From Chloroherpetonaceae bacterium (GTDB lineage Bacteria > Bacteroidota > Chlorobiia > Chlorobiales > Thermochlorobacteraceae), in contig JBDNCJ010000006.1 of assembly GCA_046719715.1 (NCBI GenBank), positions 8,492 through 72,491 on the forward strand: 64,000 nucleotides of DNA, written 5' to 3'. The notes beneath the pieces were generated by a model. That model was not told the DNA's origin, ran no database searches, and was given only the letters and a program-made list of their open reading frames with translations. Each line of letters opens with the position of its first letter. Within the stretch, counting starts at the first letter, position 1. Of the stretch, positions 33,011 to 58,964 are shown one piece after another. A program made the translations under genes and the position numbers.

Positions 33011-33146
33011 TGAAATCTATTGATTTTGTAGATTGGATAAGGCGTTTCGGTTGATTCAAAGAACGATTAAGAACGTGCGATTCGTTTCCAATGATGTTTC
33101 TATTTTATGCTCACAACTGCCGACCAATCACCGTGAAAGCCTGACG

Positions 33147-33335
33147 ATGAAAAACTTGAAAAAAGAGCGATACACGAAATCCACGCTTCCTGAAAAAATT
33201 TGCGAGAGCTGCAATCGCCCGATGTCGTGGCGCAAAGCATGGGCGAAGAATTGGGAAGAGGTTAAATACTGCTCCGACCGATGCCGCGCCGAATCCAAAC
33301 AGAAGCGCAAAACTCAAACTTCAAAGCCTCAATGA
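33147..33335 (+). CDS. DUF2256-type small zinc-ribbon protein
   Basis: CESCNRPMSWRKAWAKNWEEVKYCSDRCR matches the DUF2256 pattern. ATG 33147 is preferred over the upstream start at 33033. Confidence 0.75.
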   Translation: MKNLKKERYTKSTLPEKICESCNRPMSWRKAWAKNWEEVKYCSDRCRAESKQKRKTQTSKPQ

Positions 33336-33667
33336 AAAATAAATATGCCAAACAGCCTTCCGCAATGGAAGTTGAAAATCTCATCTATGAAGTCGCACTC
33401 AATCGCGCCTTGATTTTGATGTTGCTTGAAGAATTAGAGAAAACAAATCCGGGATTGACTGAGCGCGTTCAAGACCTACTGAACGCGGAATCACAGCGCA
33501 TTTACGGGCTGGTTTCTCAATTCGTTGAAGAGCCATCGCCGTATTACGCCCCGCTTTTAGAGATGCGTAAAACACACGACGACGCCGATAAAGCGGCGGC
33601 GATTCTCAAAAGCATTTTGAACGACCCCGAACCGCCCGCAAAACCAAAAGGGAGAAAAAAACGATAG
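33332..33667 (+). CDS. hypothetical protein (111 aa)
   Basis: The ATG at 33332 overlaps the stop of the DUF2256 gene (ATGA). Helical with a basic C-terminus (PAKPKGRKKR). No family recognised. Confidence 0.5.
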   Translation: MKNKYAKQPSAMEVENLIYEVALNRALILMLLEELEKTNPGLTERVQDLLNAESQRIYGLVSQFVEEPSPYYAPLLEMRKTHDDADKAAAILKSILNDPEPPAKPKGRKKR

Positions 33668-33684: not shown

Positions 33685-35934
33685 TTATGCTTGCAGGGCG
33701 GGCGACTTCGCCTCAACCAGCACGCCAACCGCTCCCGCAATCAGCCCGTTTGAAATCATCGGCGAAAAATGAAAATCGACTTGCGACTCGGCGACGACGA
33801 GCGATGTTGCAACCGATTCCCCCGATAGCACCCGACGGAACGCGCCAAGAAGTTGAGGATACTTGCCGTAGAGTTCATAAATGGATTTCCCTTTTGCAAG
33901 CGTTGACGCCGATTGATGTAGGTCGGTGGATTTTCCGAAGATGCCGGTGATGACTCCCGCATCGTCAAAGGTGATGAGGGAAATTGGCGCGGCGTCGAGC
34001 ATCGGCTCAATCTGCTGTTTGAACTCGCGATATTCGCTCTCGATGGTGGCACGCTTGGTAGCGTCAGTGAGCAAGGTGAGCACGCCGAGCGGATTTCCGA
34101 CCTCGTCGTCGAGGCGCGAAATGAACATCTCCGCGATTTTTTGTTCGCCGTCAGGCGTAAGATATTTGATTTTGCCGTCCCACCGTCCGACGCTTTGCAG
34201 CGACTCCATCGCGGCTTTGCGCTCTTTTGAGGAGGCATACTTGTATTTCATAATTTCGTCCGACTTCTTACCCAACGCCTCGCCCACAGACACGCCGTGA
34301 AACATCGCCGCCGCTTCATTCCAATATCGGATTTCACCAGAGACGCTCACCATCACGACGGCAAGATTAAGCGCGTTGAGAATCGCTGATTTTTCCGTCA
34401 GCATCCGCTCTTTTGCTTTTAACTCTTTTTGTGCCTCGTGGAGTTTGGCGGATTTTTCCTGAACACTGCTTTCTAAAATTTTCACGTCGCTTTCAAGACG
34501 CTCGACTTCTCGGTCGGCTTGCTCCCAATCGGCACGCAACTGCGAAATCGTGCTTTGGGCGTCGGCGAGTTCGGCAACGAGTTTTGCAATTTCAGTTTCA
34601 AGTTTTGCTTCTTTTTCGGGATTGCCTTTTGGCTGTGCCGCAAGGGTTTGAATGGTTTGATTTGCCTGTGAAAGTTCTTGTTCGAGCTTTTGTCGTTTGC
34701 TTGTTTCTTCGCCGAGTTTTGCGCGAAGGTCGGCGAGTTCTTTGGTGAAACGTTGAGCGAGCGACTGCGCCGATTCTTGCGCCGCTGTCAATTTTGATTC
34801 AAGGCTTCGCTTTTCTTCTTCGGCGTTTACCAGTTCGGCTTTTGCGGTTTCGATTTGTTCGGAAAATGCGCCGGCGTTGTTTACTTGCTTATTGAGCGCG
34901 GCGTCGTATTGCTTGAACATCGCTTCAAATTGAGCGAGTTGGTTGCCTGCATTCTCGACGGCTTCGCGAAGTTGATTGCCGGTGATGAGCGCGTCTTGAA
35001 GCTCGATGCGCAGTTGCATTTCCGCCTCTTGCGCTTTATCGACCTCGTTCATCAATTCTTTTTCGCGCTCTGCTTTTTCGGAGAGTTCGGCTTTGAGCCG
35101 CGTATTGGCTTGTCGCTCTTCTTCGTAGGCGATTGCCGAAAGCCGCGCTTTTTCTTCCGCTGTTTTCAAGGCATCGGTAAGTTCATTGAGGGTTTGGCGC
35201 GCCGCTTCAAGTTGCGATTCAAGATGTGAATTTATTGATGCGTTGCTTTGAAGCGATTGAAGTTGAGCACGAGACAGGTCGAGGGCGTTTTGGAGTTCGA
35301 AGTTGTTTGCATTCAGCGTGGCAATGGTATCGGTAAGCTCATCGATTTTTTTCTGCATATCGTCTATGACGACGGAGGAAGCGGCGTGGCTCGACACATC
35401 AGGCAAGGCGGGCTTGTGCGGTTCTTTTTCCGTCGTTGGCGCGGGAAGCGGTTCATCTTCAAGAAACGGCGACTGCAATCGCGCTAATTGTGCTCGTACC
35501 GCTTCGAGATTTCTCATGAAGTCTTCCGACGGTTGCGGGATTTGCGTCTGCGGGTTTGAGACGGGCTTCCGACTTAAAATTTCCCGAATTGCCGCCGTTA
35601 AAAATTTCAAATGCGACTTAAACACATAATCCGATGCGCCGCTTTTCAAGACCTCCGCAACGACGGCTTCATCGGTAATTTTTGAGAGCACAATGACGGG
35701 AATATGAATCGATTTTGATTTCAAGTGAGCGATGACGTCGCTCACAGTTTTGCGCTTTTGAAGAGCGTATTCGCAAAGCACCAAGTCAAAGGTTTGCTCT
35801 TCGAGTGCTTCTTCAAATTCTTCAAATGATTCTACATGCTCAATATCGGGGTGGAGTTCATCGCTTTTGAGCGTCAGCCAAGCCACTTGCGCGTCCAAGA
35901 GCGAGGTGTCAAAATGAAGAATGCGAATACTCAT
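33685..35934 (-). CDS. atypical receiver (Asp->Glu) - long coiled-coil - tandem PAS protein
   Basis: 749 aa. The N-terminal CheY-like fold has E where the phospho-acceptor D is expected (FDLVLCEYAL). Conserved S (VIVLSK) and K (DYVFKS) are retained. About 330 aa of heptad-rich sequence follow, then C-terminal PAS-like regions. No recognisable output domain. Confidence 0.7.
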   Translation of the reverse strand: MSIRILHFDTSLLDAQVAWLTLKSDELHPDIEHVESFEEFEEALEEQTFDLVLCEYALQKRKTVSDVIAHLKSKSIHIPVIVLSKITDEAVVAEVLKSGASDYVFKSHLKFLTAAIREILSRKPVSNPQTQIPQPSEDFMRNLEAVRAQLARLQSPFLEDEPLPAPTTEKEPHKPALPDVSSHAASSVVIDDMQKKIDELTDTIATLNANNFELQNALDLSRAQLQSLQSNASINSHLESQLEAARQTLNELTDALKTAEEKARLSAIAYEEERQANTRLKAELSEKAEREKELMNEVDKAQEAEMQLRIELQDALITGNQLREAVENAGNQLAQFEAMFKQYDAALNKQVNNAGAFSEQIETAKAELVNAEEEKRSLESKLTAAQESAQSLAQRFTKELADLRAKLGEETSKRQKLEQELSQANQTIQTLAAQPKGNPEKEAKLETEIAKLVAELADAQSTISQLRADWEQADREVERLESDVKILESSVQEKSAKLHEAQKELKAKERMLTEKSAILNALNLAVVMVSVSGEIRYWNEAAAMFHGVSVGEALGKKSDEIMKYKYASSKERKAAMESLQSVGRWDGKIKYLTPDGEQKIAEMFISRLDDEVGNPLGVLTLLTDATKRATIESEYREFKQQIEPMLDAAPISLITFDDAGVITGIFGKSTDLHQSASTLAKGKSIYELYGKYPQLLGAFRRVLSGESVATSLVVAESQVDFHFSPMISNGLIAGAVGVLVEAKSPALQA

Positions 35935-35955
35935 CGTTGTGTAGTTTTTTCAAAA

Positions 35956-36897
35956 TTATTCAAAAAGTGCTTGAACGAATTTCCGTCGGTCGAAGAGTTG
36001 CAAGTCGTCAATTTTTTCGCCGACGCCGATATACTTGACGGGAATGTTCAGTTCGTTTGAAATGGCAATCACCACGCCGCCTTTGGCTGTGCCGTCGAGC
36101 TTGGTGAGAATCAGCCCTGTTACATCGACGGCTTTGGTAAATTCTTTGGCTTGATTGAGAGCATTTTGCCCTGTTGAGCCATCTAAGACGAGCAAAACTT
36201 CATTTGGCGCGTCGGGCAGTTTCTTTTTCATCACGCGCTTGATTTTGGCGAGTTCTTCCATCAAGTGCGTTTTGTTGTGCAAGCGTCCCGCCGTATCGAC
36301 CAAGACGACGTCGACGTCTTTTGCAATGGCGGAAGAAACAGCGTCAAAAACGACGGCGCTGGGGTCGACGCCCTGACCTTGCGAGACAATCGGCACACCG
36401 GCGCGCTCCGCCCAAATTTCCAACTGCTCTGTGGCGGCGGCGCGAAACGTATCGGCGGCGGCAATCAAGACCTTCTTCCCCGCGCTTTTGTAATTATACG
36501 CCATCTTTCCAATGCTCGTCGTTTTTCCAACACCATTGACGCCGACAATCATAATCACATAGGGCTTCTTGGGCAATGTTGCGTCAAAATCGACCACCGT
36601 TACCTCGCGTGCGTCGCGCATCAATTTTTGAATTTCATCGCGGAGCATCGCGTCTAACTCTTGCTCGCTGGTATAACGCTCTTTTTTAGCGCGCATCGAG
36701 ATGGATTCCACGATTTTAAGCGTCGTTGGCACGCCCACATCTGCCGAAATGAGAATTTGCTCCAACTCCTCCAAAAATTCATCATCTATTTTTGTTTTGC
36801 CCTTTACAAGACGAGAAATTTTTCCGAACAAATTTTCCCTCGTTTTTGCAAGACCTTCTTTCAGTCGCGAAAGTTTGAAGGCGTCAAAAAAGCCCAT
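35956..36897 (-). CDS. ftsY: signal recognition particle receptor FtsY
   Basis: GVNGVGKTTSIGK, DTAGRLHNK and LTKLDGTAKGG are present. Confidence 0.95.
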   Translation of the reverse strand: MGFFDAFKLSRLKEGLAKTRENLFGKISRLVKGKTKIDDEFLEELEQILISADVGVPTTLKIVESISMRAKKERYTSEQELDAMLRDEIQKLMRDAREVTVVDFDATLPKKPYVIMIVGVNGVGKTTSIGKMAYNYKSAGKKVLIAAADTFRAAATEQLEIWAERAGVPIVSQGQGVDPSAVVFDAVSSAIAKDVDVVLVDTAGRLHNKTHLMEELAKIKRVMKKKLPDAPNEVLLVLDGSTGQNALNQAKEFTKAVDVTGLILTKLDGTAKGGVVIAISNELNIPVKYIGVGEKIDDLQLFDRRKFVQALFE

Positions 36898-36908
36898 GTT
36901 GGTTGTGC

Positions 36909-37652
36909 CTATGATTTTAAGGTTATTAAATTTTCGGCGAAGCCGACGGCGCGCGTGGCAAGTTCCAACGCTGTTTTTGCGTCAACTTCAAATTCAACGC
37001 TCTCGTAGCGCATCTCGACGGCAAAGTCGTTGAGTTTTGACGCATCGTTTAACTCTGCTTCAACTTCAATTGCGTTTGCCGCAAGCAATTTCAAAATCTC
37101 TCCCAAATCGTGCGTTCTCGGAAAATGAACGTTCTGATGCGCAAGCACGGCTTTGAGTGCCTTCTCTACCGCTTGTTGCGCATTGAAGCCAATTCCTTCC
37201 ATATCGTTTGGGCTGACTGCAAAGAGCGTTTCGGCTCGCTCTTTATCTTTCTTGGCTTTTTCCAAGAGGGTTTTCGCAATGTCCTGATTGGTTTTCATTT
37301 CCGCTGGGTTGTTCGCCATTCGCTTTGCTGACACATCTTCGTAAAGCACAACGCCTTCGTCTCTGATGTTTCGCCACAGTCCGACCGTTACGCCCTTCAT
37401 CGCCTCGCACTCCGATTGATGCTTGACCAACAGTTGAACCCGTGCGGGCAACTTCCCCACTGCCGATTTCAATTTCATTCGTTCCTGTTTCAAATCCACC
37501 TCGTCCGAAAGCATCACGAGCACATCGTAATCGCTTTCTTCGTCGTAATCGCCTCGCGCCCGCGAGCCAAACAGCACCACCTTCACAGGCGACGACACCC
37601 GACGCACTTCGCCGAGAATTTCTTGCTCAATTTCATCTATGACGGTTTTCAT
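36909..37652 (-). CDS. nucleotidyltransferase-HEPN fusion protein, copy A
   Basis: 247 aa. N-terminal minimal NTase (VVLFGSRARGDYDEESDYDVLVML) and a C-terminal classical HEPN-like four-helix region (..QQAVEKALKAVLAH..FPRTHDLGEILKLL..FAVEMRY). Confidence 0.8.
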   Translation of the reverse strand: MKTVIDEIEQEILGEVRRVSSPVKVVLFGSRARGDYDEESDYDVLVMLSDEVDLKQERMKLKSAVGKLPARVQLLVKHQSECEAMKGVTVGLWRNIRDEGVVLYEDVSAKRMANNPAEMKTNQDIAKTLLEKAKKDKERAETLFAVSPNDMEGIGFNAQQAVEKALKAVLAHQNVHFPRTHDLGEILKLLAANAIEVEAELNDASKLNDFAVEMRYESVEFEVDAKTALELATRAVGFAENLITLKS

Positions 37653-38357
37653 GGATTCACAGTCCTTTTGTTAGCAATGCTTCAGCGAAGGCGACGGCGC
37701 GTGTGGCAAGTTCCAACGCTGTTTTTGCGTCAACTTCAAATTCAACGCTCTCGTAGCGCATCTCGACGGCAAAGTCGTTGAGTTTTGACACATCGTTTAA
37801 CTCTGCTTCAACTTCAATTCCGTTTGCCGCAAGCAATTTCAAAATCTCTCCCAAATCGTGCGTTCTCGGAAAATGAACGTCGTGATGCGCAAGCACGGCT
37901 TTGAGTGCCTTCTCTACCGCTTGCTGGCAGTGAAATCCGATTGCTTCCATTTCATTCAAGTGCTCGTTCAGCACCAATGCCGATTTCAAATCTACTTTCG
38001 CTTTTTCCAAGAGGGTTCTCGCGACGTCTTGATTGGTTTTCATTTCCGCTGGGTTATTCGCCATTCGCTTTGCTGACACATCTTCGTAAAGCACAACGCC
38101 TTCGTCTCTGATGTTTCGCCACAGTCCGACCGTTACGCCCTTCATCGCCTCGCACTCCGATTGATGCTTGACCAACAGTTGAACCCGCGCGGGCAACTTC
38201 CCCACTGCCGATTTCAATTTCATTCGTTCTTGTTTCAAATCCACCTCGTCCGAAAGCACCACGAGCACATCGTAATCGCTTTCTTCGTCGTAATCGCCTC
38301 GCGCCCGTGAGCCAAACAGCACCACCTTCACAGGCGACGACACCCGACGCACTTCGC
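36944..38357. repeat. tandem direct duplication (~670 bp x2, period 748/745 bp)
   Basis: 36944-37612 and 37692-38357 are nearly identical nucleotide for nucleotide, with scattered single differences. The exception is one divergent patch, 37176-37254 versus 37924-37999. Confidence 0.9.
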
Positions 38358-38439
38358 GAAGTATTTCCACTTCAAATCCATCAAGCGCGATTTTGTGCTC
38401 AACTTGACTATCTTCAATTCCTTTGAAAGCCAAAGCCAT
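37657..38439 (-). CDS. nucleotidyltransferase-HEPN fusion protein, copy B
   Basis: Near-identical paralogue of copy A. The ORF runs to 38487, but that ATG overlaps the thiL ATG head-to-head, so the internal ATG at 38439 (MALAFKG..) is more plausible. Confidence 0.78.
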   Translation of the reverse strand: MALAFKGIEDSQVEHKIALDGFEVEILREVRRVSSPVKVVLFGSRARGDYDEESDYDVLVVLSDEVDLKQERMKLKSAVGKLPARVQLLVKHQSECEAMKGVTVGLWRNIRDEGVVLYEDVSAKRMANNPAEMKTNQDVARTLLEKAKVDLKSALVLNEHLNEMEAIGFHCQQAVEKALKAVLAHHDVHFPRTHDLGEILKLLAANGIEVEAELNDVSKLNDFAVEMRYESVEFEVDAKTALELATRAVAFAEALLTKGL

Positions 38440-38480
38440 CTTTTTCGTTATTTTGTCTGAATATAAAACTTCCTTGTTCA

Positions 38481-39686
38481 ATGTCATTTACACGCATCTC
38501 TGAAATCGGGGAATTTGCTTTGATTGACCGACTTGCAACCCTCATTCAACCAACCGAATCTCAACTTTCCACGCTCAAAAAAGGTATCGGCGACGACTGC
38601 GCCGTCATTGAACTTCCAAACGGCAAATTGCAAGTCATTTCCACCGATTTGCTCATTGAACAGATTCATTTTGATTTACTCACCACGCCGCTCGAGCACT
38701 TGGGCGCGAAAGCCATCAGCGTGAATGTTTCTGACATTTGCGCCATGAACGCCAAGCCGCTTTATGCGACGATGAGCATTGGACTTTCCAACAATGTTTC
38801 CGTCGAGATGATTGAGCAGATTTACGAAGGCGCGACGCGCGTTGCCAAGCAATACGGCATTGCGATTGTCGGCGGCGACACGTCGGCGAGCATCACGGGA
38901 TTGGTGATTTCGGTTACGATTGTCGGCGAAGTTGATGCCGATAAAATCACCTATCGAAGCGGCGCAAAGTCAGGCGACTTCATCTGCATTACGGGCGATG
39001 TCGGACGGTCGTTTGCGGGCTTGAAAGTGCTTATGCGCGAGCGTCAAACGATGCTTGATACCTTCGCGGAAAATCCCGATATGGATAAATCCACTTACAA
39101 AGCCGATTTGTCGGAATATCAAAAAGCGATTGAAAAACACCTGCTTCCCAAAGCGCGCATTGATGCGGTCAAGTTTTTTCATGAGGCGGGAATTGTTCCA
39201 ACCTCAATGATTGATGTTTCAGATGGCGTTGCGTCTGAACTCAAACACCTCTGCCGAAATTCACAAACGGGCGCGTTGATTGAAGAATCCAAGATCCCGA
39301 TTCTTTCCGAGACGCGCGAAGTTTCGGACGAATTCGAAGATGATGGCACCACCTACGCGCTTTTCGGTGGCGAAGACTACGAATTGCTTTTTACGATTTC
39401 GCCAAACGATTTAGAAAAACTCTCTGCGTTTAAAGACATTCACATCATCGGCAAAGTGCTCGACGCTTCCCATGGCGTTAAAATGCGCGACCTCTTCGGC
39501 ACCGATATCGACTTGCAAAACACTTCTGGCTTTCAACACTTCGCCGAAGAAGACGAGCACTTTTTTGAAGACGAAGACGAACACACTCACAACGGACACG
39601 ACCACGATGCACACGGTCGTAATGGGCATAATCATAACGGACATGATGACGCGGACGAAGACATTTGGGGCGAGCGCAAAAATTAA
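38481..39686 (+). CDS. thiL: thiamine-monophosphate kinase with His/Asp/Glu-rich C-terminal extension
   Basis: ThiL blocks IGDDCAVIE, DICAMNAKP and VGGDTS are present. About 50 extra C-terminal residues read EEDEHFFEDEDEHTHNGHDHDAHGRNGHNHNGHDDADED. Confidence 0.88.
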   Translation: MSFTRISEIGEFALIDRLATLIQPTESQLSTLKKGIGDDCAVIELPNGKLQVISTDLLIEQIHFDLLTTPLEHLGAKAISVNVSDICAMNAKPLYATMSIGLSNNVSVEMIEQIYEGATRVAKQYGIAIVGGDTSASITGLVISVTIVGEVDADKITYRSGAKSGDFICITGDVGRSFAGLKVLMRERQTMLDTFAENPDMDKSTYKADLSEYQKAIEKHLLPKARIDAVKFFHEAGIVPTSMIDVSDGVASELKHLCRNSQTGALIEESKIPILSETREVSDEFEDDGTTYALFGGEDYELLFTISPNDLEKLSAFKDIHIIGKVLDASHGVKMRDLFGTDIDLQNTSGFQHFAEEDEHFFEDEDEHTHNGHDHDAHGRNGHNHNGHDDADEDIWGERKN

Positions 39687-43877: not shown

Positions 43878-44261
43878 ATGATTATTTTTATTGACGACGA
43901 TACACAGATTTTAGAAGTCCTCAACGATTTTTTCAGCGACCTCTACGAAGTAAAAACCTTTGACCAGCCTTGGCAAGCCCTTCGTTTCATTGAAGACAAC
44001 AAACGCTTGATTGAAGTTTGCGTTACCGATTACAAAATGCCCACCGCAAATGGGATAGAACTTGCCAAAAAAATTCGTGCGGTTGACCCCAACATCATGA
44101 TTATCCTCATGTCGGGCTTCATTGACTTTCCGACCATTGAAGAACACTTGAAATCACGCTTGATTTACCAATTCATCAACAAGCCTTTCGTTTTGGAGCG
44201 AATGGCGCAAACGATTGAAACAGCGAGTAAAATTTATTTAAAGAAAAGTTCTCTTTTATAA
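43878..44261 (+). CDS. stand-alone response regulator receiver protein
   Basis: 127 aa. IIFIDDD.., acceptor context VCVTDYKMPTANG, ILMSGF and the conserved K in FINKPF. Confidence 0.85.
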   Translation: MIIFIDDDTQILEVLNDFFSDLYEVKTFDQPWQALRFIEDNKRLIEVCVTDYKMPTANGIELAKKIRAVDPNIMIILMSGFIDFPTIEEHLKSRLIYQFINKPFVLERMAQTIETASKIYLKKSSLL

Positions 44262-44337: not shown

Positions 44338-47300
44338 ATGAAAAACACACGACTCTTAACGCTTCTGCTTGTGTTGCTTCTGCAGACGTTTGCTTTTGCG
44401 CAAGCACAAGAGTCAAACTCCGAGCGGACGTTTGAACAACTCTTTGCCGAAAAAAATGCACGCACGCCGGCACAGCAAAAAATTGAATCCAACATTCTGC
44501 AAAAAGCGTCGGCAATGCGCCAAGCAGGCTTGACGTCGCAAAACGCTCAAATGCGAAACGCCAGTCAGTTCAGCGATAAGCACGGCGTTCAAGTCGATGA
44601 ACAAGGCAGAGTTTATGTGTATCTGCGTCCGACGAAGAGCGCGACCTTTGAGCAACTTGAATCCATCGCGCTTCAATATGGTGCAAAACTTGGCGCCACC
44701 AATTCAGAGTTCAAAATCGTTCAAGCGTGGATTCCGTTTGATAAGTTGGAAGACGTGGCAGGACAAGCGGCGATTGCCTCTATTCAGCCCGTCTTGCGTC
44801 CTGTAACACAAGTAGGCAGTGTGATTTCACAAGGTCGTGATAAATCGCGCGCCAACACGATTCACACGCGCTACAACGTGCGCGGCGGCGGCGTGAAAGT
44901 CGGCGTGCTTTCCGACGGATGCGACGGGTTTCAACAATCCATCGCGTCAGGCGACTTGATTGGACTTCAAGTGATTGACAACAGCGCGGGCGGCGCTGAA
45001 GGAACGGCGATGCTTGAAATCATTCAGGACGTTGCGCCGCTTTCCAACCTTGCCTTTGCAACGGCATTTGGCGGTGTTGGTGGATTCATCAACAACATTC
45101 AAGCCCTTGCCGATGCGGGTTGCAAAGTCATTACCGACGACGTGCGCTACTTCGGCGAACCTGTCTATGAAGACGGTCCGATTGCGCAAAAGGTCGACCA
45201 AGTTGCAACGATTAACGACGTCGTCTATACCTCTTCGGCGGGCAATAACAACCTTGAAACCTACTCGACTGACCTCTATGTCGGAATGTCGCCCGTTACT
45301 TTACCGCAACTTGTCGGCACGGTTCACAACTTTGGCACGCAAGCCTCACCTGACGATAATCAAACATTTAGCGCACCGACTAGCGCAGGCGTCTCGGTTG
45401 AACTTCAATGGGCAGATGCCTTCGGTGCCTCGAGCAACGACTACGACCTTTACATTGTCAATTTGAATAACAACACCATCGTTGCCAGCGGCACGAGCAC
45501 ACAAAACGGCACACAAGACCCGTTGGAATTTGCCACGCTCAGCGCGGGCGGCACATTCCGCGCCGTTGTGCATTTGAAGAGCGGCAACCCCGTTCCATTC
45601 AAAATTTTCTACCGCTCGTTTGCAGGCACAGCTTCAATTAGCCTTTCATCACCAGCGGCACCGCAAATTGCAAATACGGGCGGACACGCGGGCGCAAATG
45701 GCGCATTAGGGTGCGCGGCAGTCAATGGCGGCACAACGGCGACGACAGGCTCACCATCCGCAATTCGCAATTACAGCGCACGCGGTCCTGTAACGATTTA
45801 CAACGGCGGATTCCCAAACCTTTTGGAGACGCGCAATAAGCCCGACATTACAAGTTTCGACGGCGTGCGCGTTACGGGCAACGGCGGATTCCCAACCGTC
45901 TTTGATGGCACTTCGGCGGCGGCACCGCATGTGGCGGGCATTGCGGCACTCATTCGTTCTGCAAGTCGCAACCTCACGGCGGCACAAGTGCGCAACGCGA
46001 TTCGCAACACCGCCGTGGATTTAGGCGACGCCGGCTTTGACCCCGTCTTCGGATTTGGACGCGCCGACGCATACAGCGCCGTAACTTCCGTGCTTGAAGG
46101 CACCGCGATTTATCAGAACCTAAATCTTCTGGCGATTCCCGACAATGACACGACGGGCGTCAGTGTTACGGTCAATGTCAGTGGCTCTGGCACCGTGAGT
46201 TATGTTGCCTTGAGCCTCTCGACGACGCATACGCGCTTAGGCGATTTAGTCGTTACGCTTCGCTCGCCGACGGGCACAACGCGCACGCTTGTCAATCGCT
46301 CGGGTGCAACCACAGGTGCGTCAACGGCTCAACGCGCACATATTGCCCTTGAAAATGTCGGCGCGCTTTCGATTGGCACGACGCAAACGAACGCAAACCT
46401 CATCGGCTACTTCCGACCTGTTCCTGATACATTTGCTTTCTTCGGAGAGGCAATTAATGGGAACTGGATTGTTACGGTTTCCGACCGCGCCGCAACCAAC
46501 GTCGGCGCACTTCAACAAGTTGGGTTAATCATCAACGCGACGCCGGCACTTGCCGCGCCCGTATTTGTTTCTACACCGCCGACCGTTGTTGTTGGAGGTT
46601 CAGTCTACTCTTACACGGCGATTGCGGCAGGCAATCCCACACCGACGCTCTCTCTGACGACCGCACCACAAGGCATGACGCTTAATTCTGCGACGGGCGC
46701 AATCAGTTGGAATACGCAAAGCGTTGCCTTCGGCACATATCCCGTCGTCGTTCAAGCGCAAAATTCGCAAGGCACGGTTACACAAGAGTTCAGCGTTACC
46801 GTCCGCGCCAGCGATTGGACGCGCCAAACGCCCGCCGCACAACTTGCCAACTTCCAACTCTACGAAGTCGCGCTTGCCGGCGGCAGTGATACGCTCAATA
46901 TCTGGGCGGTCGGTTCGCAATCGCTTCAATCCGGTCCGACGCGCGTCATGCGTAGTACCGACGGCGGCACGACTTGGACAAACGCCACAGGAAATCTGAC
47001 CACATCAGGCAGAGCCTTCACGATTGGTGCGGCGTCTGACCAAATTGCGGTTGTCGGCTTTGAAAACGGCACGGCGTTCCGAACCGTGAACGGCGGCACG
47101 ACTTGGTCGGCGGTTACTTGGCCTCCGCCCGTCAATACCTTTATGAACCGTGTTCTCTTCGTCAGCCCAACCGTCGGTTATGCACAAGGCGACCACGCCC
47201 CTGCGCCCAACCTTCAATGGCCCGTCTATAAAACCACTGACGCAGGCGCAACTTGGACACTCACCAATACGCCAAACGCCTTGCAACAAGGCAGCGATAT

Positions 47301-48105
47301 TGAGTATGGACAAAATTCCGGCGTGTTCTTCCTCAACGAAAACATCGGTTGGTTTACGGGCGTGATTGGCAACAGTCCGCAAACTTCGCCCAGCCGCGTC
47401 TATCGCACCACAGATGGCGGAAATTCTTGGTCATTTACGACACTCCCACAAGGCACGGGCTTCAACATCAACATTGCCGCTTTTGATGCGAATAATGTTT
47501 TCGTGATGATGCAACAAGCCGCCCCGACCGTCCGACGTTCGACTGACGGCGGCGCCACCTTCGTCAACCCGACGCCCGGACTTTCCACGATTCCCACTGC
47601 GATTGCCGCACGCCCAAATACAAACGAACTTTATGTAACCACCTCCAACAGTATTCTCAAATCCACCGACGGCGGCAATACTTGGACACCCGAAGCGATT
47701 CCTTCCATAATCACAAGCCTTAACTTCCTCATCTTCGCTAACGAGCGTCATGGTTGGGCTTGCGGCGCAAACGGTATGATTGTCAAATATCAACCTGCAA
47801 CGACTTCCTCCGTCGGCGGCGGCACGATTTCGGAGAAACCCTCCGCCTTCAAACTCATGCAGAACTATCCGAACCCGTTCAACCCCGCAACCACTATCAC
47901 CTATCAACTTGCGGCGTTCAGCGATGTGAAGTTGGAAGTCTTCGACGTGCTCGGCAGAAAAGTCGCAACGCTTGTCAATGCACGTCAAACGGCGGGCGCA
48001 CACAGCGTCAACTTCAATGCGTCGGCTTTCGCCAGCGGCGTCTATTTCTATCGCTTGCAAGCCGGTTCATTTGTTGAAACGAAGAAGATGATGCTCGTCA
48101 AGTAA
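44338..48105 (+). CDS. secreted multidomain S8 subtilisin-like protease with P-domain, Ig-like domain, six-Asp-box beta-propeller and T9SS C-terminal sorting domain
   Basis: Signal peptide. S8 residues include VGVLSDG and GTSAAAPHVAGIAALI. Proprotein-convertase P-domain-like block LGDLVVTLRSPTGTTRTLVNRSG, and an Ig-like block (APQGMTLNSATGAISWNT). Six BNR/Asp-box motifs are present: STDGGTTW, VNGGTTW, TTDAGATW, TTDGGNSW, STDGGATF, STDGGNTW. Por_Secre_tail-like end: YPNPFNPATTITYQL...GVYFYRLQAGSFVETKKMMLVK. Confidence 0.85.
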   Translation: MKNTRLLTLLLVLLLQTFAFAQAQESNSERTFEQLFAEKNARTPAQQKIESNILQKASAMRQAGLTSQNAQMRNASQFSDKHGVQVDEQGRVYVYLRPTKSATFEQLESIALQYGAKLGATNSEFKIVQAWIPFDKLEDVAGQAAIASIQPVLRPVTQVGSVISQGRDKSRANTIHTRYNVRGGGVKVGVLSDGCDGFQQSIASGDLIGLQVIDNSAGGAEGTAMLEIIQDVAPLSNLAFATAFGGVGGFINNIQALADAGCKVITDDVRYFGEPVYEDGPIAQKVDQVATINDVVYTSSAGNNNLETYSTDLYVGMSPVTLPQLVGTVHNFGTQASPDDNQTFSAPTSAGVSVELQWADAFGASSNDYDLYIVNLNNNTIVASGTSTQNGTQDPLEFATLSAGGTFRAVVHLKSGNPVPFKIFYRSFAGTASISLSSPAAPQIANTGGHAGANGALGCAAVNGGTTATTGSPSAIRNYSARGPVTIYNGGFPNLLETRNKPDITSFDGVRVTGNGGFPTVFDGTSAAAPHVAGIAALIRSASRNLTAAQVRNAIRNTAVDLGDAGFDPVFGFGRADAYSAVTSVLEGTAIYQNLNLLAIPDNDTTGVSVTVNVSGSGTVSYVALSLSTTHTRLGDLVVTLRSPTGTTRTLVNRSGATTGASTAQRAHIALENVGALSIGTTQTNANLIGYFRPVPDTFAFFGEAINGNWIVTVSDRAATNVGALQQVGLIINATPALAAPVFVSTPPTVVVGGSVYSYTAIAAGNPTPTLSLTTAPQGMTLNSATGAISWNTQSVAFGTYPVVVQAQNSQGTVTQEFSVTVRASDWTRQTPAAQLANFQLYEVALAGGSDTLNIWAVGSQSLQSGPTRVMRSTDGGTTWTNATGNLTTSGRAFTIGAASDQIAVVGFENGTAFRTVNGGTTWSAVTWPPPVNTFMNRVLFVSPTVGYAQGDHAPAPNLQWPVYKTTDAGATWTLTNTPNALQQGSDIEYGQNSGVFFLNENIGWFTGVIGNSPQTSPSRVYRTTDGGNSWSFTTLPQGTGFNINIAAFDANNVFVMMQQAAPTVRRSTDGGATFVNPTPGLSTIPTAIAARPNTNELYVTTSNSILKSTDGGNTWTPEAIPSIITSLNFLIFANERHGWACGANGMIVKYQPATTSSVGGGTISEKPSAFKLMQNYPNPFNPATTITYQLAAFSDVKLEVFDVLGRKVATLVNARQTAGAHSVNFNASAFASGVYFYRLQAGSFVETKKMMLVK

Positions 48106-48264: not shown

Positions 48265-49212
48265 TTAATAAATCGTCTTTGTGCTGATACTGCTTCGCAA
48301 CGCGCTGAGCAGTTCTTCGATGGAACGAGAGGCTGACTCGTCGCTTCGGAACACTTTTTTCTCCATCGCTTTTAAGTTGAAGGCTGGATTTTGTCCCGAA
48401 ACTTTGAAATGAAGCACGGCTGATTCAACTGTCAGACGGAGCGATTCGCGCGGAAACGGTTTGACAAGATAACGATACACGCTTCCTTCGTTAATCATTC
48501 GAATGGCTTGCTTTGCATCTTGCGAACTGGTCATCAAAATGGTAACAATGTTTGGATATTTGTCCTTAACTGCAATTAAAAAATCTCCGCCATTGATTTC
48601 GCCAAGTTCTACATCAGCGACAACAACGGCAATGTTATGTCTGGGAATCCATTCAAAGGCGTCGAGTGCATCGGTGGTAATGTGTGTTTTATACTTCGGC
48701 TCAAAGAAGGCTTTGAATTGCTCCAAGTGCTTGGGATTGCTGTCGACAAAGAGCAGTTCGTATTCCGATGTCCCCTCGCTTGGCATTTGAAGTGATGGAA
48801 TGGCGAGAGCCGACGGTCTCGATGCGGTCATAGCACGGCGCTGCTCGGCAACGGTGCAAGCAAATCGGACGGTTTCTTTGAGTTTTTCAGCATTCCAAGG
48901 TTTGTTGATATATCGGAAAATTTCGCCGACATTGACTGAATCGACAACGGCTTGCAAATCGGCGTAACCCGTCATCAAAATTCGGATTGAGTTCGGTGAA
49001 ATTTCTTTTGCACATCGCAGAAAGTCTACACCCGACATTTGCGGCATGCGTTGGTCGCTGATAACAACATCTATCGTATTCTGTTTCAAAATTTCTAACG
49101 CGTCCGCGCCGCTTTCCGCCGTGAAAACGATGTATTCATCAAAGAGAATACTGAGCGATTGCAGAATCAGGGGTTCATCATCAACGAATAACAGTTTCGA
49201 TTGGCTTGACAT
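48265..49212 (-). CDS. response regulator with two tandem receiver domains and no output domain
   Basis: REC1: LLFVDDEPL..VVISDQRMPQMSG..NKPW. REC2: LLFVDSNPK..VVVADVELGEINGGDF..LVKPF. Confidence 0.85.
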   Translation of the reverse strand: MSSQSKLLFVDDEPLILQSLSILFDEYIVFTAESGADALEILKQNTIDVVISDQRMPQMSGVDFLRCAKEISPNSIRILMTGYADLQAVVDSVNVGEIFRYINKPWNAEKLKETVRFACTVAEQRRAMTASRPSALAIPSLQMPSEGTSEYELLFVDSNPKHLEQFKAFFEPKYKTHITTDALDAFEWIPRHNIAVVVADVELGEINGGDFLIAVKDKYPNIVTILMTSSQDAKQAIRMINEGSVYRYLVKPFPRESLRLTVESAVLHFKVSGQNPAFNLKAMEKKVFRSDESASRSIEELLSALRSSISTKTIY

Positions 49213-49348: not shown

Positions 49349-50983
49349 TTATTCGGCGAAGGGTGAATCGGCGAAGGGCGAATTTACGCTTTGCTTGCTT
49401 GCGCCAACAGGGGTTGCACTTGAAATAGGCAAGGTGATGGTAAATTCCGTTCCGCGTCCGACTTGGCTTTGCACATCGATTTTCCCGCCGTGCTTTTCAA
49501 TGATTTTGTAAGCGATAGAAAGCCCAAGCCCGGTGCCTTGTCCGACGGGCTTCGTTGTAAAGAACGGGTCAAAAATTTTCTTCAAGTTTTCGGGCGGTAT
49601 GCCTTTGCCGTTGTCAATGACTTTGACCACGACGTGATTACCTTGCGTCATGGTTTTGATGGTAATTCTTCCTGTGCGCTCATCGACGGCGTGAACGGCG
49701 TTGGTGATGAGGTTCAAGAAGACTTGGTTCATTTGAGCAGGGAAGGCTTGAACCAGCGGCACTTGGGTGAACTCTTTGATGACTTGAATGCCACCTTTGA
49801 ACATGTGTCCGGCAATTTTGAGCGTCGTCTCGATATTTTCGTTCATATCAGTCGGCTTGAAGTCGGCTTCGTCCAAGCGCGAGAAGTTTTTGAGGTTGAG
49901 CACCAAGTCTTGAATTCGGTCGATGCCTTCAACCGAACTGCGAAAGAGGTTTTCGGATTCTTGCCAGATTCGGTTCTTCACTTTTTGAGCGGCGTTATCG
50001 ATTTGCGAGAGAAGCAACGCGACGTCGTTTGGACTGCCATACATGATTTGCGAGCGCAGCTTTTCGTATAGTGCGATGAGTTCTTTGATTTCTTTGTTTT
50101 TGGACTCGAGCATTTCAATGTTGTTCTTGACGAATCCAAGCGGCGTGTTCATTTCGTGCGCCAAGCCTGCGACCATTTGACCGAGCGACGACATTTTTTC
50201 CGTCTGCATCATCATCACTTCATTTTGACGCGATTCTTCTCGCAGATGCGAGAGTTCGGTAACGTCCATAACGAAGGTTACTTTTTTCGGCTTGCCGTCC
50301 GTTCCGACGATTCGCGCGGCATCGGCGAGAATGGTAAGCAGTTTTCCCGACTTGTGAACCGTGTTCCATTCCCCACGAATTTCTTTGTAGCCTGCAAGGT
50401 ATTTGTCGTGCAAATCTTTCCAGAAGTCCTTTTTATCGGGCTGAACAATCATTGTGAAGGATTTACCAATCAAATCCGCAGGTTGATAACCGTAAATGTC
50501 GGAATAGGCTTTATTGACATATTCAAAAATGCAGTCTTGATTGGTGATACAGATGCCGAGTGGTGTTGCGTCGATGATGGTTCTCAAGCGCGCTTCGCTC
50601 TGCCTAATGGCTTCGTCGACACCGGCGCCAGAGGAAATTGAAGCGGGCGCTGGCGACGGAGTAGCAGGCGCAATCGGCTGTCCGCCTTGTCGCATTTGCA
50701 GTTTTTTCAACCATTCATCGTAGCCCATGGGCGGCGGTTCGCCATTTGTAGCTGTTGGCGGAGCGTGCATCGGCGCGCCAGAGACGGGCAGTTGAAGTTG
50801 TTGCATGAATTGCTGCGTAGCAACGGAAAACTCCGACGCCAGCATACGCGGCGAAAGATTCGGCGGCAGTTGCCCCGTTTGTTGCGCCCTCATCAACTCC
50901 TCGAGCAACTCCATTTGCTCAATAGATTTCAAAGCTTTTTTGAGCGACTTTTTGATTTTTTTGTAATCGAGCATAGCTGTCAA
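49349..50983 (-). CDS. PAS-domain sensor histidine kinase (soluble)
   Basis: The N-terminus is Pro/Gln-rich and low-complexity. PAS region (ITNQDCIFEYVNKAYSDIYGY). H-box LAHEMNTPLGFV. ATPase boxes LNLITNAVHA, DNGKGIP and GTGLGLSIAYKIIEKHGG. Confidence 0.9.
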   Translation of the reverse strand: MTAMLDYKKIKKSLKKALKSIEQMELLEELMRAQQTGQLPPNLSPRMLASEFSVATQQFMQQLQLPVSGAPMHAPPTATNGEPPPMGYDEWLKKLQMRQGGQPIAPATPSPAPASISSGAGVDEAIRQSEARLRTIIDATPLGICITNQDCIFEYVNKAYSDIYGYQPADLIGKSFTMIVQPDKKDFWKDLHDKYLAGYKEIRGEWNTVHKSGKLLTILADAARIVGTDGKPKKVTFVMDVTELSHLREESRQNEVMMMQTEKMSSLGQMVAGLAHEMNTPLGFVKNNIEMLESKNKEIKELIALYEKLRSQIMYGSPNDVALLLSQIDNAAQKVKNRIWQESENLFRSSVEGIDRIQDLVLNLKNFSRLDEADFKPTDMNENIETTLKIAGHMFKGGIQVIKEFTQVPLVQAFPAQMNQVFLNLITNAVHAVDERTGRITIKTMTQGNHVVVKVIDNGKGIPPENLKKIFDPFFTTKPVGQGTGLGLSIAYKIIEKHGGKIDVQSQVGRGTEFTITLPISSATPVGASKQSVNSPFADSPFAE

Positions 50984-57497: not shown

Positions 57498-58964
57498 ATG
57501 CATACCATCTTAGTCGTTGATGATGAACCCCTTCTCGTTGAGTTCATTGAAGAATCTCTCTCTTGCGAGGGCTACCATGTTGAGACGGCGTCGGACGGCG
57601 CGAGTGCGCTAGAAATCGCACGTCAGTCATTTCCCGATATTGTTTTACTTGATTACCACTTGCCCGACATGAGCGGCATTGATGTTCTCAAAAAATTGCG
57701 CGAGCATGATGACGGCGTGCAGGTGCTCATGCTTACCGGCTTCAACGACGTGCGCACCGCCTTCGATGCTATCCGACATGGCGCGGCGGATTATATCTTA
57801 AAACCATTTGAACTTGACGCCCTTAAACTCTCGATTGCTAAGGTTGCTGAAAAAATTTCGCTTCGCAATCAAATCCGAATTTTGAGCAAAGAAACCTTGC
57901 GCCGATACACAGAATCCGAGTTTATTCTCTGCCCGTCTCCGAAAATGACGAAGGTCTATGAACTCGCGGCACAAGTCGCTCAAACCAACGACACCACCGT
58001 TCTCATTTTGGGCGAAAGCGGTTCGGGCAAAGAGCATATAGCCAAGTTCGTTCATCACAGTTCGGCAAGAAAGTCGAAGCCGTTTGTAGAAATCAACTGC
58101 GCCGCCATTCCTGAAAACTTGCTTGAAGCGGAACTCTTTGGCTACGAGCCGGGCGCATTTACCGACGCACGCAGCAAAAAAATCGGGCTGTTTGAATACG
58201 CCGACGGTGGCACGCTCTTTCTCGATGAAATCGGCGATATGCCGCTTGCCACACAAGCCAAAGTGCTCAAACTCATTGAAACCAAAACCTTTCGGCGCGT
58301 AGGCGGGTTGCGCGATATGAAAAGCGACGTGCGCATCGTTGCCGCCACGAATCGCGACCTCGCACGGCTCATCGACGAAGGCAAGTTTCGGGAAGATTTA
58401 TACTACCGCTTGCAAGTCGTTCCGATTGAGCTGCCGCCGCTTCGAGAGCGTCCCGAAGACATTCTCCAACTTGCTGATTTCTTCCTTAAAAACTTCTGCC
58501 AAACCATGCGCAAGCGCTTGGAGTTTTCCGACGAAGCCTTCGCCACGATGCTCGGCTACGGTTGGAAAGGCAATGTGAGAGAACTTAAAAACGTGATTGA
58601 ACGCGCCGTCATCATCACGCCAAATGCGGAGAAAATCATGCCTCATCATCTCGCGCTGGATAGTCGTCGCAAAGTAGCCGCCCCCATGCTATCGTCAAAG
58701 CCCGCCGCCGATGGAATGATTAGAGAAGAGCCTTCCCATCAGCCGAACTTGCCGTTTTCTTTGCGAGAGCACTTAGACAACATCGAGCGCAAATACATCT
58801 TAGACGCACTTCAAAAAACCGACGGCAACCAACTCCGCGCCGCAAAACTCTTAGGCATTGAGCGGCACGTGCTTCGATATCAGATGAAAAAATTAGGCAT
58901 TGCTCTCAAAGAGGAATCAGCACCCAGTCGCCGCGTCAGCGATGAATCTACCCACGAGTCGTAG
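57498..58964 (+). CDS. sigma-54-dependent Fis-family response regulator (NtrC-like)
   Basis: REC domain (ILVVDDEP..IVLLDYHLPDMSG). AAA+ domain (GESGSGKE, GAFTDA loop, ELFGYEPGAF). C-terminal Fis HTH (GNQLRAAKLLGIERHVLRYQMKKLGI). ATG 57498 is preferred over 57420, which overlaps the tautomerase gene. Confidence 0.92.
   Translation: MHTILVVDDEPLLVEFIEESLSCEGYHVETASDGASALEIARQSFPDIVLLDYHLPDMSGIDVLKKLREHDDGVQVLMLTGFNDVRTAFDAIRHGAADYILKPFELDALKLSIAKVAEKISLRNQIRILSKETLRRYTESEFILCPSPKMTKVYELAAQVAQTNDTTVLILGESGSGKEHIAKFVHHSSARKSKPFVEINCAAIPENLLEAELFGYEPGAFTDARSKKIGLFEYADGGTLFLDEIGDMPLATQAKVLKLIETKTFRRVGGLRDMKSDVRIVAATNRDLARLIDEGKFREDLYYRLQVVPIELPPLRERPEDILQLADFFLKNFCQTMRKRLEFSDEAFATMLGYGWKGNVRELKNVIERAVIITPNAEKIMPHHLALDSRRKVAAPMLSSKPAADGMIREEPSHQPNLPFSLREHLDNIERKYILDALQKTDGNQLRAAKLLGIERHVLRYQMKKLGIALKEESAPSRRVSDESTHES

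Follow-up and report, generated by a model that had tools for sequence, protein, structure and literature searches.

A glutamate-type pseudo-receiver joined to a predicted coiled coil and a PAS pair beside ftsY in Chloroherpetonaceae: a probable kinase-less counterpart of hybrid histidine kinases

Pseudo-receivers account for several percent of all receiver domains, and the mechanisms that activate or inactivate them in bacteria have been called a mystery (PMC12632262). By the published definitions, a pseudo-receiver lacks any one of the five catalytic residues of a receiver, and an aspartate-less receiver (ALR) is a receiver by computation that lacks the phospho-acceptor Asp at the D site (PMC12632262, PMC4395418). 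Glu is the commonest replacement at the D site of ALRs (26%); the first acidic metal-binding position is kept in 65%, the second is acidic in only 29%, and most characterized ALRs are transcription factors (PMC4395418, PMC12632262). Substitution of CheY D13 blocks Mg2+ binding and phosphorylation, and FrzS of Myxococcus xanthus, which has S10 at this site, binds neither Mg2+ nor BeF3 (PMC1974792). As PMC12632262 summarizes PMC9811614, the FrzS pseudo-receiver is a docking surface that is independent of phosphorylation. Here we describe a protein, hereafter the target, that is encoded in a stretch of 64,000 nucleotides (nt) from a Chloroherpetonaceae bacterium (GCA_046719715.1, JBDNCJ010000006.1, positions 8,492-72,491, forward); this whole stretch is called the window, and all coordinates below are its own. 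We hold with moderate confidence that the target is a kinase-less counterpart of hybrid histidine kinases, working through protein-protein contacts as a dimeric adaptor or modulator.

The target open reading frame (ORF) comprises 749 amino acids (aa) and a stop codon. A sequence-only reading of this DNA had proposed a receiver followed by about 330 aa of coiled coil and by PAS domains, with no enzymatic or DNA-binding output, and this layout is borne out by Pfam, an AlphaFold2 (AF2) model and hydrophobic periodicity. The parts of the protein are as follows.

33685-35934, minus strand: whole ORF, receiver with Glu at the acceptor site (REC(E)), linker, coiled coil, PAS, PAS (ORF list, Pfam, AF2 model)
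35572-35934, minus strand: pseudo-receiver domain, residues 1-121, (beta-alpha)5 fold (PF00072, AF2, Foldseek, dN/dS)
35365-35571, minus strand: linker, residues 122-190 (AF2 confidence, alignment)
34369-35364, minus strand: predicted coiled coil, residues 191-522, 332 aa (periodicity, AF2 helices)
34618-34638, minus strand: PKGNPEK hinge, residues 433-439 (AF2 helix break)
34060-34368, minus strand: PAS1, residues 523-625 (Pfam PAS_4 6e-10, TIGR00229 5e-12, AF2 topology)
33688-34059, minus strand: linker helix and PAS2, residues 626-749 (fold only, homology to the kinase P0059 described below)

The full-length AF2 model was built from a 27-sequence alignment and has a mean per-residue confidence (pLDDT) of 65. 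Pfam places PAS_4, PAS_9 and PAS matches at residues 514-634, and between these and the receiver it finds only weak coiled-coil-type matches far under the cut-offs, on which NCBIfam agrees; neither library gives a HisKA or HATPase_c match to the target. An SMC, tropomyosin or filament identity was rejected, as these matches reflect compositional coiled coil only: the target scores 37 bits against SMC cut-offs of 567-729 and 17.9 against the Filament cut-off of 40 (Pfam, NCBIfam). The gene contains no internal DNA tandem repeats.

The N-terminal domain has the receiver fold. Response_reg (PF00072) matches residues 25-108 at 38.4 bits, against a gathering threshold of 30.2. In the AF2 prediction residues 1-121 form five strands alternating with five helices (pLDDT 73-86). 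Compared by Foldseek, this predicted domain superimposes on the receivers of PhoB, DrrB, PhoP and ArlR with template modelling scores of 0.86-0.89 and root-mean-square deviations of 1.6-2.2 Å. At the acceptor position it carries E55, within the motif LVLCEYAL. A sequence search of PDB chains sets E55 opposite the acceptor Asp of SenB (liitDvrl), LvrB (lilsDfsl) and PhoP, and also opposite a Glu in chain 2jb9 (lilleWml), which we take to be the PhoB D53E mutant; a profile built from 16 orthologous receivers and run against PDB sequences leaves the register unchanged, with E55 at the acceptor. When the target, CheY, PhoB, Spo0F and the four other receivers of the window are aligned by MAFFT, E55 falls in the CheY D57 column, and S84, Y103 and K106 fall in those of T87, Y106 and K109. 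In the AF2 model E55, S84 and K106 lie at the C-terminal ends of beta3, beta4 and beta5 (beta3 ends at C54, beta4 at S84, and beta5 at F105, followed by K106). Because beta1 ends at F8, the "DD" metal-binding pair (DD1 and DD2) is assigned to D9 and T10, which stand at the end of this strand and which HMMER pairs with the E-D pair of LvrB; the MAFFT placement of the pair at D14/A15 was rejected, as these residues are inside helix alpha1 of the model. The active-site positions are as follows.

35905-35910, minus strand: D9-T10, the "DD" metal-binding pair, with DD1 kept and DD2 changed to Thr (AF2, HMMER, residue counts)
35770-35772, minus strand: E55 codon GAA, phospho-acceptor (D) position (PDB sequence search, MAFFT, profile, conservation)
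35683-35685, minus strand: S84, the conserved T/S position (MAFFT, residue counts)
35617-35628, minus strand: YVFK, from the switch aromatic Y103 to the conserved Lys K106 (MAFFT, residue counts)

Two of the five catalytic residues are gone from the target (D to E55, DD2 to T10), and S84, Y103 and K106 are kept; the domain has neither an acceptor Asp nor two metal-binding acids, and it has the Thr/Ser and the Lys of a canonical receiver. Judged by these residues, it is a pseudo-receiver of the aspartate-less subclass as defined in the literature (PMC12632262, PMC4395418). The sequence-only reading had inferred a pseudo-receiver from Glu in place of the acceptor Asp and had noted the retained downstream Ser and Lys, and each of these points stands: the alignments and the model agree on E55, and the profile puts no Asp in the acceptor column. 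It had also stated that the four other receivers of the window possess the Asp, and indeed all four do so in the CheY D57 column (VTDYKMP at 44022, ISDQRMP at 49042, VADVELG at 48601 and LLDYHLP at 57645); the window contains no sixth receiver.

The altered site is a fixed property of the family. A word-indexed search recovered 43 full-length orthologues with 61-85% identity and an intact reading frame, followed by a sharp drop in score to generic receiver and PAS matches; a receiver-only search of the same kind gave no useful matches, and a third one with divergent members as queries gave zero new relatives. The few named orthologues are annotated as Chlorobiales or Chloroherpetonaceae metagenome-assembled genomes (MAGs), and the gene occurs in four GTDB species representatives, all of them Chloroherpetonaceae or 'Thermochlorobacteriaceae' MAGs. 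In the 27-sequence alignment E55, D50, S84, Y103 and K106 are invariant. The set was widened to 48 sequences by including three distant relatives, and 48/48 have Glu at the D site, so that the orthologue comparison called for by the sequence-only reading shows no uniform Asp. An acidic residue (D or E) is found at DD1 but never at DD2, where T (39), P (7) and S (1) occur; the T site is S or T, and the Lys is kept. Ratios of nonsynonymous to synonymous substitution (dN/dS), computed by the Nei-Gojobori method for the target against five orthologous loci, are 0.07-0.12 for the receiver, 0.18-0.29 for the linker, 0.14-0.17 for the coil, 0.04-0.11 for PAS1 and 0.14-0.20 for PAS2. Every domain of the target is under purifying selection, and the receiver is functional. 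The E55 codon is GAA in 6/6 loci despite a proportion of synonymous differences (pS) of 0.5-0.78; since Asp is a single third-position change away, the Glu is under selection and not a product of drift, sequencing error or decay.

At the other end of the protein, PAS1 exceeds its thresholds (PF08448, 39.7 bits against 23.1; TIGR00229, 46 bits). Residues 500-749 were modelled separately (pLDDT 75.5) and form two beta-beta-alpha(n)-beta-beta-beta modules with a 23-residue helix between them. Their best Foldseek matches in the PDB are tandem-PAS sensors, namely Brucella LOV-PAS, NifL, DosP, MmoS and FixL, with E values from 7e-12 to 4e-9 over about 240-250 columns. PAS2 has the PAS topology in the predicted model (pLDDT 74-91) and is identified by fold alone, as it lacks profile support: Pfam gives no match, hhalign detects no profile similarity to PAS1, and a PAS2 profile run against PDB sequences reaches only E = 0.12, to the DhaR PAS domain. 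The target ends after the last strand of PAS2, with no further domain.

An exhaustive HMMER search with a full-length profile against 1.84 billion cluster representatives returned 22 proteins at E <= 1e-30. Three of these are distant proteins built like the target: P0058 has 643 aa, P0061 has 727 aa, and P0063, which carries two additional PAS domains, has 814 aa. Their overall identity is 26-33%, and each has E-P at DD and Glu as the D-site residue. Two others bear a kinase. P0059 (1729 aa; cluster member KER11157.1, from a 'Ca. Thermochlorobacteriaceae' MAG) is a hybrid histidine kinase, and P0062 (1641 aa; MCS7014019.1, Chloroherpetonaceae) is a kinase with HisKA and HATPase_c that is cut at the contig end. 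Both have the receiver signature E-P...E...S...Y...K, as in the target family, and both run from an N-terminal receiver through GAF and many PAS domains to a PAS pair that leads directly into HisKA and HATPase_c; P0059 also has a C-terminal receiver, which is canonical. The H, N, G1, F and G2 boxes of P0059 are intact (GGIAHDFNNLL, NLAVNAIDAM, DTGEGI, FEPFFTTKEVGKGTGLGLS), as are the boxes of P0062 as far as its sequence runs. Their PAS pair is homologous to residues 502-743 of the target (249 and 202 bits), with the shared motifs MKY[KR]Y in PAS1 and GKSIY..Y...LSG[DE] in PAS2. The linker helix and PAS2 of the target are homologous to residues 1210-1326 of P0059, whose HisKA starts at 1354; in this alignment the target stops at the boundary between PAS2 and the dimerization and histidine phosphotransfer (DHp) domain of its kinase relatives.

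The closest receivers that still contain the Asp are the N-terminal receivers of REC-PAS(n)-HisKA-HATPase-REC hybrid kinases. Asp occupies the D site in 63 of the 79 receiver-domain matches examined, the typical signature being E-D/D/S/Y/K followed by a residue other than Pro. Against this background the Glu at D and the loss of DD2 are derived changes. The absence of Pro after the Lys (K106-S107) was considered as a further pseudo-receiver trait and rejected, since the Asp-containing outgroup receivers likewise lack this Pro; the trait was therefore inherited from the parent receiver subfamily. The sequence-only reading had set the target against two-component regulators. This contrast has to be qualified, for the closest relatives are hybrid kinases that share the receiver, the PAS pair and the locus, which makes the target a probable kinase-less offshoot of a two-component protein.

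The shared locus lies directly downstream of ftsY, which precedes the target by 21 nt:

35956-36897, minus strand: ftsY, directly upstream of the target and the constant anchor gene of the locus (gene neighbourhood)

The two genes are probably co-transcribed. No terminator-like site was found between them, and the counts from a promoter and terminator scan are at or below shuffle expectation. The order ftsY-then-target recurs in loci L001-L005, and ftsY also stands upstream of P0058 and P0061; P0063 is located elsewhere in its genome, not beside ftsY. P0059 and P0062 occupy the same spot, in the order of a divergent AIRS-family gene, ftsY and the gene X, with gaps of 4 and 113 nt. Across the AIRS/ftsY/X loci (window 33685-39686; L005, L008-L011), X is either a kinase-less coiled-coil form or a hybrid kinase of 1641-1729 aa. 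FtsY is 79-97% identical among all nine genomes, which are thus close relatives, so that the adjacency reflects synteny and is no evidence of a functional link to the signal recognition particle receptor. A deep functional linkage to ftsY, suggested by the 32%-identical relatives, was downgraded for the same reason, as FtsY there is 85-89% identical and the synteny is ordinary. The modules common to the variant classes are only 25-50% identical (25-33% for the PAS pair between kinase-bearing and kinase-less forms), and FtsY identities do not part the kinase-bearing from the kinase-less genomes. Given such low module identity despite close FtsY proteins, the locus is evolving unusually fast or exchanging old variants, that is, either diverging in place or swapping alternatives downstream of ftsY.

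Other features of this neighbourhood are recorded here in their own right. A 128-aa ORF at 33281-33667 (+), with no Pfam match, is convergent with the target, with 18 nt between their ends; related loci contain it with 88-92% conservation. Its first 55 nt are shared with the end of a DUF2256 ORF (33033-33335), and one of these two ORFs has probably been given a wrong start site. Two tandem paralogous genes for nucleotidyltransferase and HEPN fusions, at 36909-37652 and 37657-38487 (-), separate ftsY from the AIRS-family gene; the gene is present as a single copy in L001-L004 and absent from L005, L010 and L011. The pair is a variable insertion and possibly an element of the toxin-antitoxin or defence type.

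Between the two ends of the target, the linker (residues 122-190) is Pro-rich and mostly disordered in the AF2 prediction, with pLDDT < 50 except for helix 137-152. This short amphipathic helix (window 35479-35526, minus strand) contains or adjoins five residues that are invariant in 27 orthologues (F139, N142, Q149, L150 and L153), and it may serve as an interaction motif or pair with the receiver of its own chain. Next, AF2 predicts two long helices, 191-432 and 439-522, parted by PKGNPEK. The dominant hydrophobic periods of residues 191-522 are 3.49 and 2.32 residues; in the best register, the enrichment of a/d positions is 0.556 as compared with 0.283 +/- 0.027 in shuffles (z = 10.3), a value reached by 0/300 shuffles. 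The segment holds 2 Pro and 5 Gly, of which both Pro and one Gly are within the hinge. The long heptad-rich segment noticed in the first reading of the sequence is thus confirmed by its periodicity; with a rise of 0.148 nm for each residue, the coiled coil would be a rod some 49 nm long. Its length ranges from 321 to 432 aa across orthologues, varying via repeat insertions and deletions. Considered as a possible argument against the passing of a signal along the coil, these changes in length give a mixed picture: a multiple of 7 accounts for 18 of the 27 differences, and the remainder are of 39-47 or 79 residues. Duplicated units of 39-49 residues have expanded the coil in P0001, P0003, P0020-P0022 and P0043 (alignment columns ~249-475), P0020 having three copies of KEESEKKINALTQTIDTLNASNAQLQTALEESRAQLQSL, and insertions or deletions beside the hinge span whole numbers of heptads (7, 14 or 21 residues).

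We propose that the target is a cytoplasmic homodimeric rod with two interaction or sensing ends. The coiled coil would dimerize the protein and space its ends, one of which, the PAS pair, would sense a signal or bind a partner. At the other end, the pseudo-receiver may offer a docking surface that does not depend on phosphorylation, probably its alpha4-beta5-alpha5 face, by analogy with FrzS. Because D and DD2 are both replaced and the kinase core is absent, the target almost certainly neither receives nor donates phosphoryl groups; with a canonical site unable to accept a phosphoryl group and with no kinase, it would signal via protein-protein contacts, adapting or modulating a pathway related to two-component systems. 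Several points weigh against this proposal. That the kinase was lost rather than gained is read only from outgroup architectures, and the relationships among the variants are poorly resolved. The dimerization and the parallel orientation of the coil are assumed from the heptads alone, and the full-length AF2 monomer is of low overall confidence (predicted template modelling score 0.26). Inspection of the PAS domains of the target by eye reveals no LOV Cys or heme His motif. No partner gene can be identified from the context, and the neighbours besides ftsY are housekeeping genes. The hosts, moreover, are uncultured MAG lineages.

A different account of the receiver, raised by the sequence-only reading and regarded here as a tentative possibility, is that it is a constitutive phosphomimetic: the carboxylate of Glu55 would reach Ser84 and Lys106 and lock the domain in an "on"-like state, with control of the permanently active protein exerted only by abundance, localization or the PAS end. 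The invariance or near-invariance of S84, Y103 and K106 fits a T/K/Y coupling network that is still selected, and the Glu itself is selectively maintained over Asp. A number of canonical regulators are activated by D-to-E changes, and Asp-less receivers have Glu at this site more often than any other residue (PMC12632262, PMC4395418). D-to-E alone is often insufficient, as in CheY, PhoB and Spo0A, and ChxR remained active when its Glu was changed to Asp or Ala (PMC4395418); the Glu of ChxR is thus dispensable (PMC4395418, PMC12632262). The BeF3-activated receivers 1zes, 3nns and 6is1 are among the best structural matches, which is a weak indication. The active and inactive states are indistinguishable in a predicted model. 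Furthermore, the Ser, Tyr and Lys are ancestral in the parent subfamily, so that their retention needs no phosphomimetic role.

The coil raises another alternative, a polar or cytoskeletal scaffold of the FrzS/AglZ type, a fair analogy towards which the sequence-only reading leaned, in which the rod would anchor at a pole or filament (for example in gliding or cell organization) and the pseudo-receiver would recruit a partner; on the evidence we find this unlikely. The layout is FrzS-like, with Ser/Thr at the CheY D13 position and a coil of more than 250 aa (PMC1974792), and the variable coil length of 321-432 aa is as expected of a spacer rod. Chloroherpeton is a gliding bacterium, and a protein with a type IX secretion tail in the window shows that the organism has this secretion system. 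However, no specific sequence relationship to FrzS is detectable among the matches listed: of the 66 PDB sequence matches at E<=1, the best 60 include no FrzS chain, nor do the 16 profile matches at E<=0.01 or the top 50 fold matches. The window contains no motility, Frz or Mgl genes, the target keeps the T-site Ser and has a PAS pair in place of the C-terminal tail of FrzS, and its relatives are sensor kinases, not cytoskeletal proteins.

Less probable still is a role as a kinase modulator or decoy, in which the target would heterodimerize with a kinase through PAS-PAS contacts, or its dead receiver would dock on a DHp domain and block phosphotransfer. Intact hybrid kinases from the same bacterial family contain homologues of both its receiver and its PAS pair. 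PAS domains commonly dimerize, the top fold matches are dimeric tandem-PAS sensors (FixL, NifL, PpsR), and NifL is a kinase-like PAS protein that acts only by binding its partner. Against such a role, the kinase and kinase-less forms are found as alternatives at one locus in different genomes, and the identity between their PAS pairs is low for specific heterodimerization.

It is very improbable that the receiver can still be phosphorylated, whether on D9, D14 or D50 instead of the canonical Asp or on Glu55 itself, to give an acyl phosphate. Conservation of D9 and D50 speaks for this, and phosphorylation of Glu is chemically possible, as PMC4395418 mentions. On the other side, D50 at the start of beta3 and D14 within alpha1 are both away from the pocket in the AF2 model, all members have T, P or S in place of the DD2 acid that Mg2+ binding requires, and no receiver is known to signal by Glu phosphorylation (PMC4395418). 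That the target is a functionless, decaying remnant of a truncated kinase gene has next to no probability: it does end exactly at the PAS2/DHp boundary, but 43 full-length orthologues keep the frame intact, dN/dS is 0.04-0.2 in all domains, and no leftover kinase sequence lies downstream, where the conserved convergent ORF begins 18 nt past the stop.

Two of the other receiver genes in the window have features of their own. The REC-REC protein at 48265-49212 (-) keeps the Asp in its second receiver (VADVELG) and has Ser at the second metal-binding position (FVDSN), so that by the strict five-residue definition this receiver is also a pseudo-receiver; its gene adjoins a PAS-HisKA-HATPase kinase at 49349-50983 (-). 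A single-domain CheY-like receiver at 43878-44261 (+) is directly upstream of a 1255-aa subtilase at 44338-48105 (+), which has a P-domain, BNR/sortilin repeats and a type IX secretion C-terminal sorting tail; this pairing is conserved in L001, L004 and L005.

Each element of the target is already known: Glu-type Asp-less receivers, the joining of a pseudo-receiver to a coiled coil (FrzS/AglZ), and receiver-PAS proteins without output. What is new is the combination of REC(E), coiled coil, PAS and PAS, for which no family description was found in the searchable literature and only generic database names exist ('PAS domain S-box protein'), together with the standing of the target as the positional and sequence counterpart of intact hybrid kinases that bear the same pseudo-receiver. 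The locus provides a natural comparison, in which one syntenic position combines a Glu-type pseudo-receiver and PAS pair with a kinase core in some genomes and lacks that core in others. Such a comparison would permit tests of the role of the pseudo-receiver independent of phosphotransfer, and of how proteins made of a receiver and a coiled coil, such as FrzS, can arise. As a conjecture that we consider doubtful, the locus downstream of ftsY may record the conversion of a sensor kinase into a FrzS-like rod scaffold: a receiver that was Asp-less beforehand and the PAS pair nearest the kinase core would have been kept, the GAF/PAS array replaced by a coil of 330 aa and the kinase core lost. The product would be a phosphotransfer-free adaptor with the Glu-type pseudo-receiver as a constitutive docking module, and the kinase-bearing and kinase-less variants would persist as alternatives among closely related populations, whose FtsY proteins are 79-97% identical. 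The practical value is limited, as the hosts are uncultured hot-spring Chlorobiales and no new biochemical principle is indicated.

How does the target compare with the systems already described? Relative to the ALRs surveyed by Maule et al. in 2015 (PMC4395418) and in a 2025 minireview (PMC12632262), it has the modal residue pattern, with Glu at D, the first acidic residue and the Lys kept and the second acidic residue lost; the coiled coil and tandem PAS without an output domain are absent among the characterized examples in these two papers. The best PDB sequence match of its receiver is LvrB of Leptospira. Glu is naturally at the acceptor, and function is independent of Asp phosphorylation, in plant PRR/TOC1 and ascomycete Rim15p (PMC12632262); these are eukaryotic proteins of unrelated architecture, with a CCT motif and a protein kinase, respectively, and this points to separate origins. 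FrzS of Myxococcus xanthus and AglZ resemble the target in that a long coiled coil follows an N-terminal pseudo-receiver, and FrzS shares with it the Ser/Thr at the CheY D13 position, the conserved Lys, the switch Tyr and a coil of more than 250 residues (PMC1974792). However, the D and T sites are Ala and Gly in FrzS but Glu and Ser in the target, and FrzS ends in a short tail and not in PAS-PAS and belongs to a different phylum and gene context. In Caulobacter ShkA a pseudo-receiver serves as a regulatory, non-phosphorylated module inside a hybrid kinase (PMC7010744); that pseudo-receiver is central and binds c-di-GMP, whereas that of the target is N-terminal and the kinase has been lost. 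The hybrid kinases P0059 and P0062 have in common with the target the derived E-P...E receiver, the motifs of the PAS pair and the place downstream of ftsY; the target differs from them in having no HisKA, HATPase_c or C-terminal receiver, and in having a coil of 332 aa where the kinases carry their GAF/PAS arrays.

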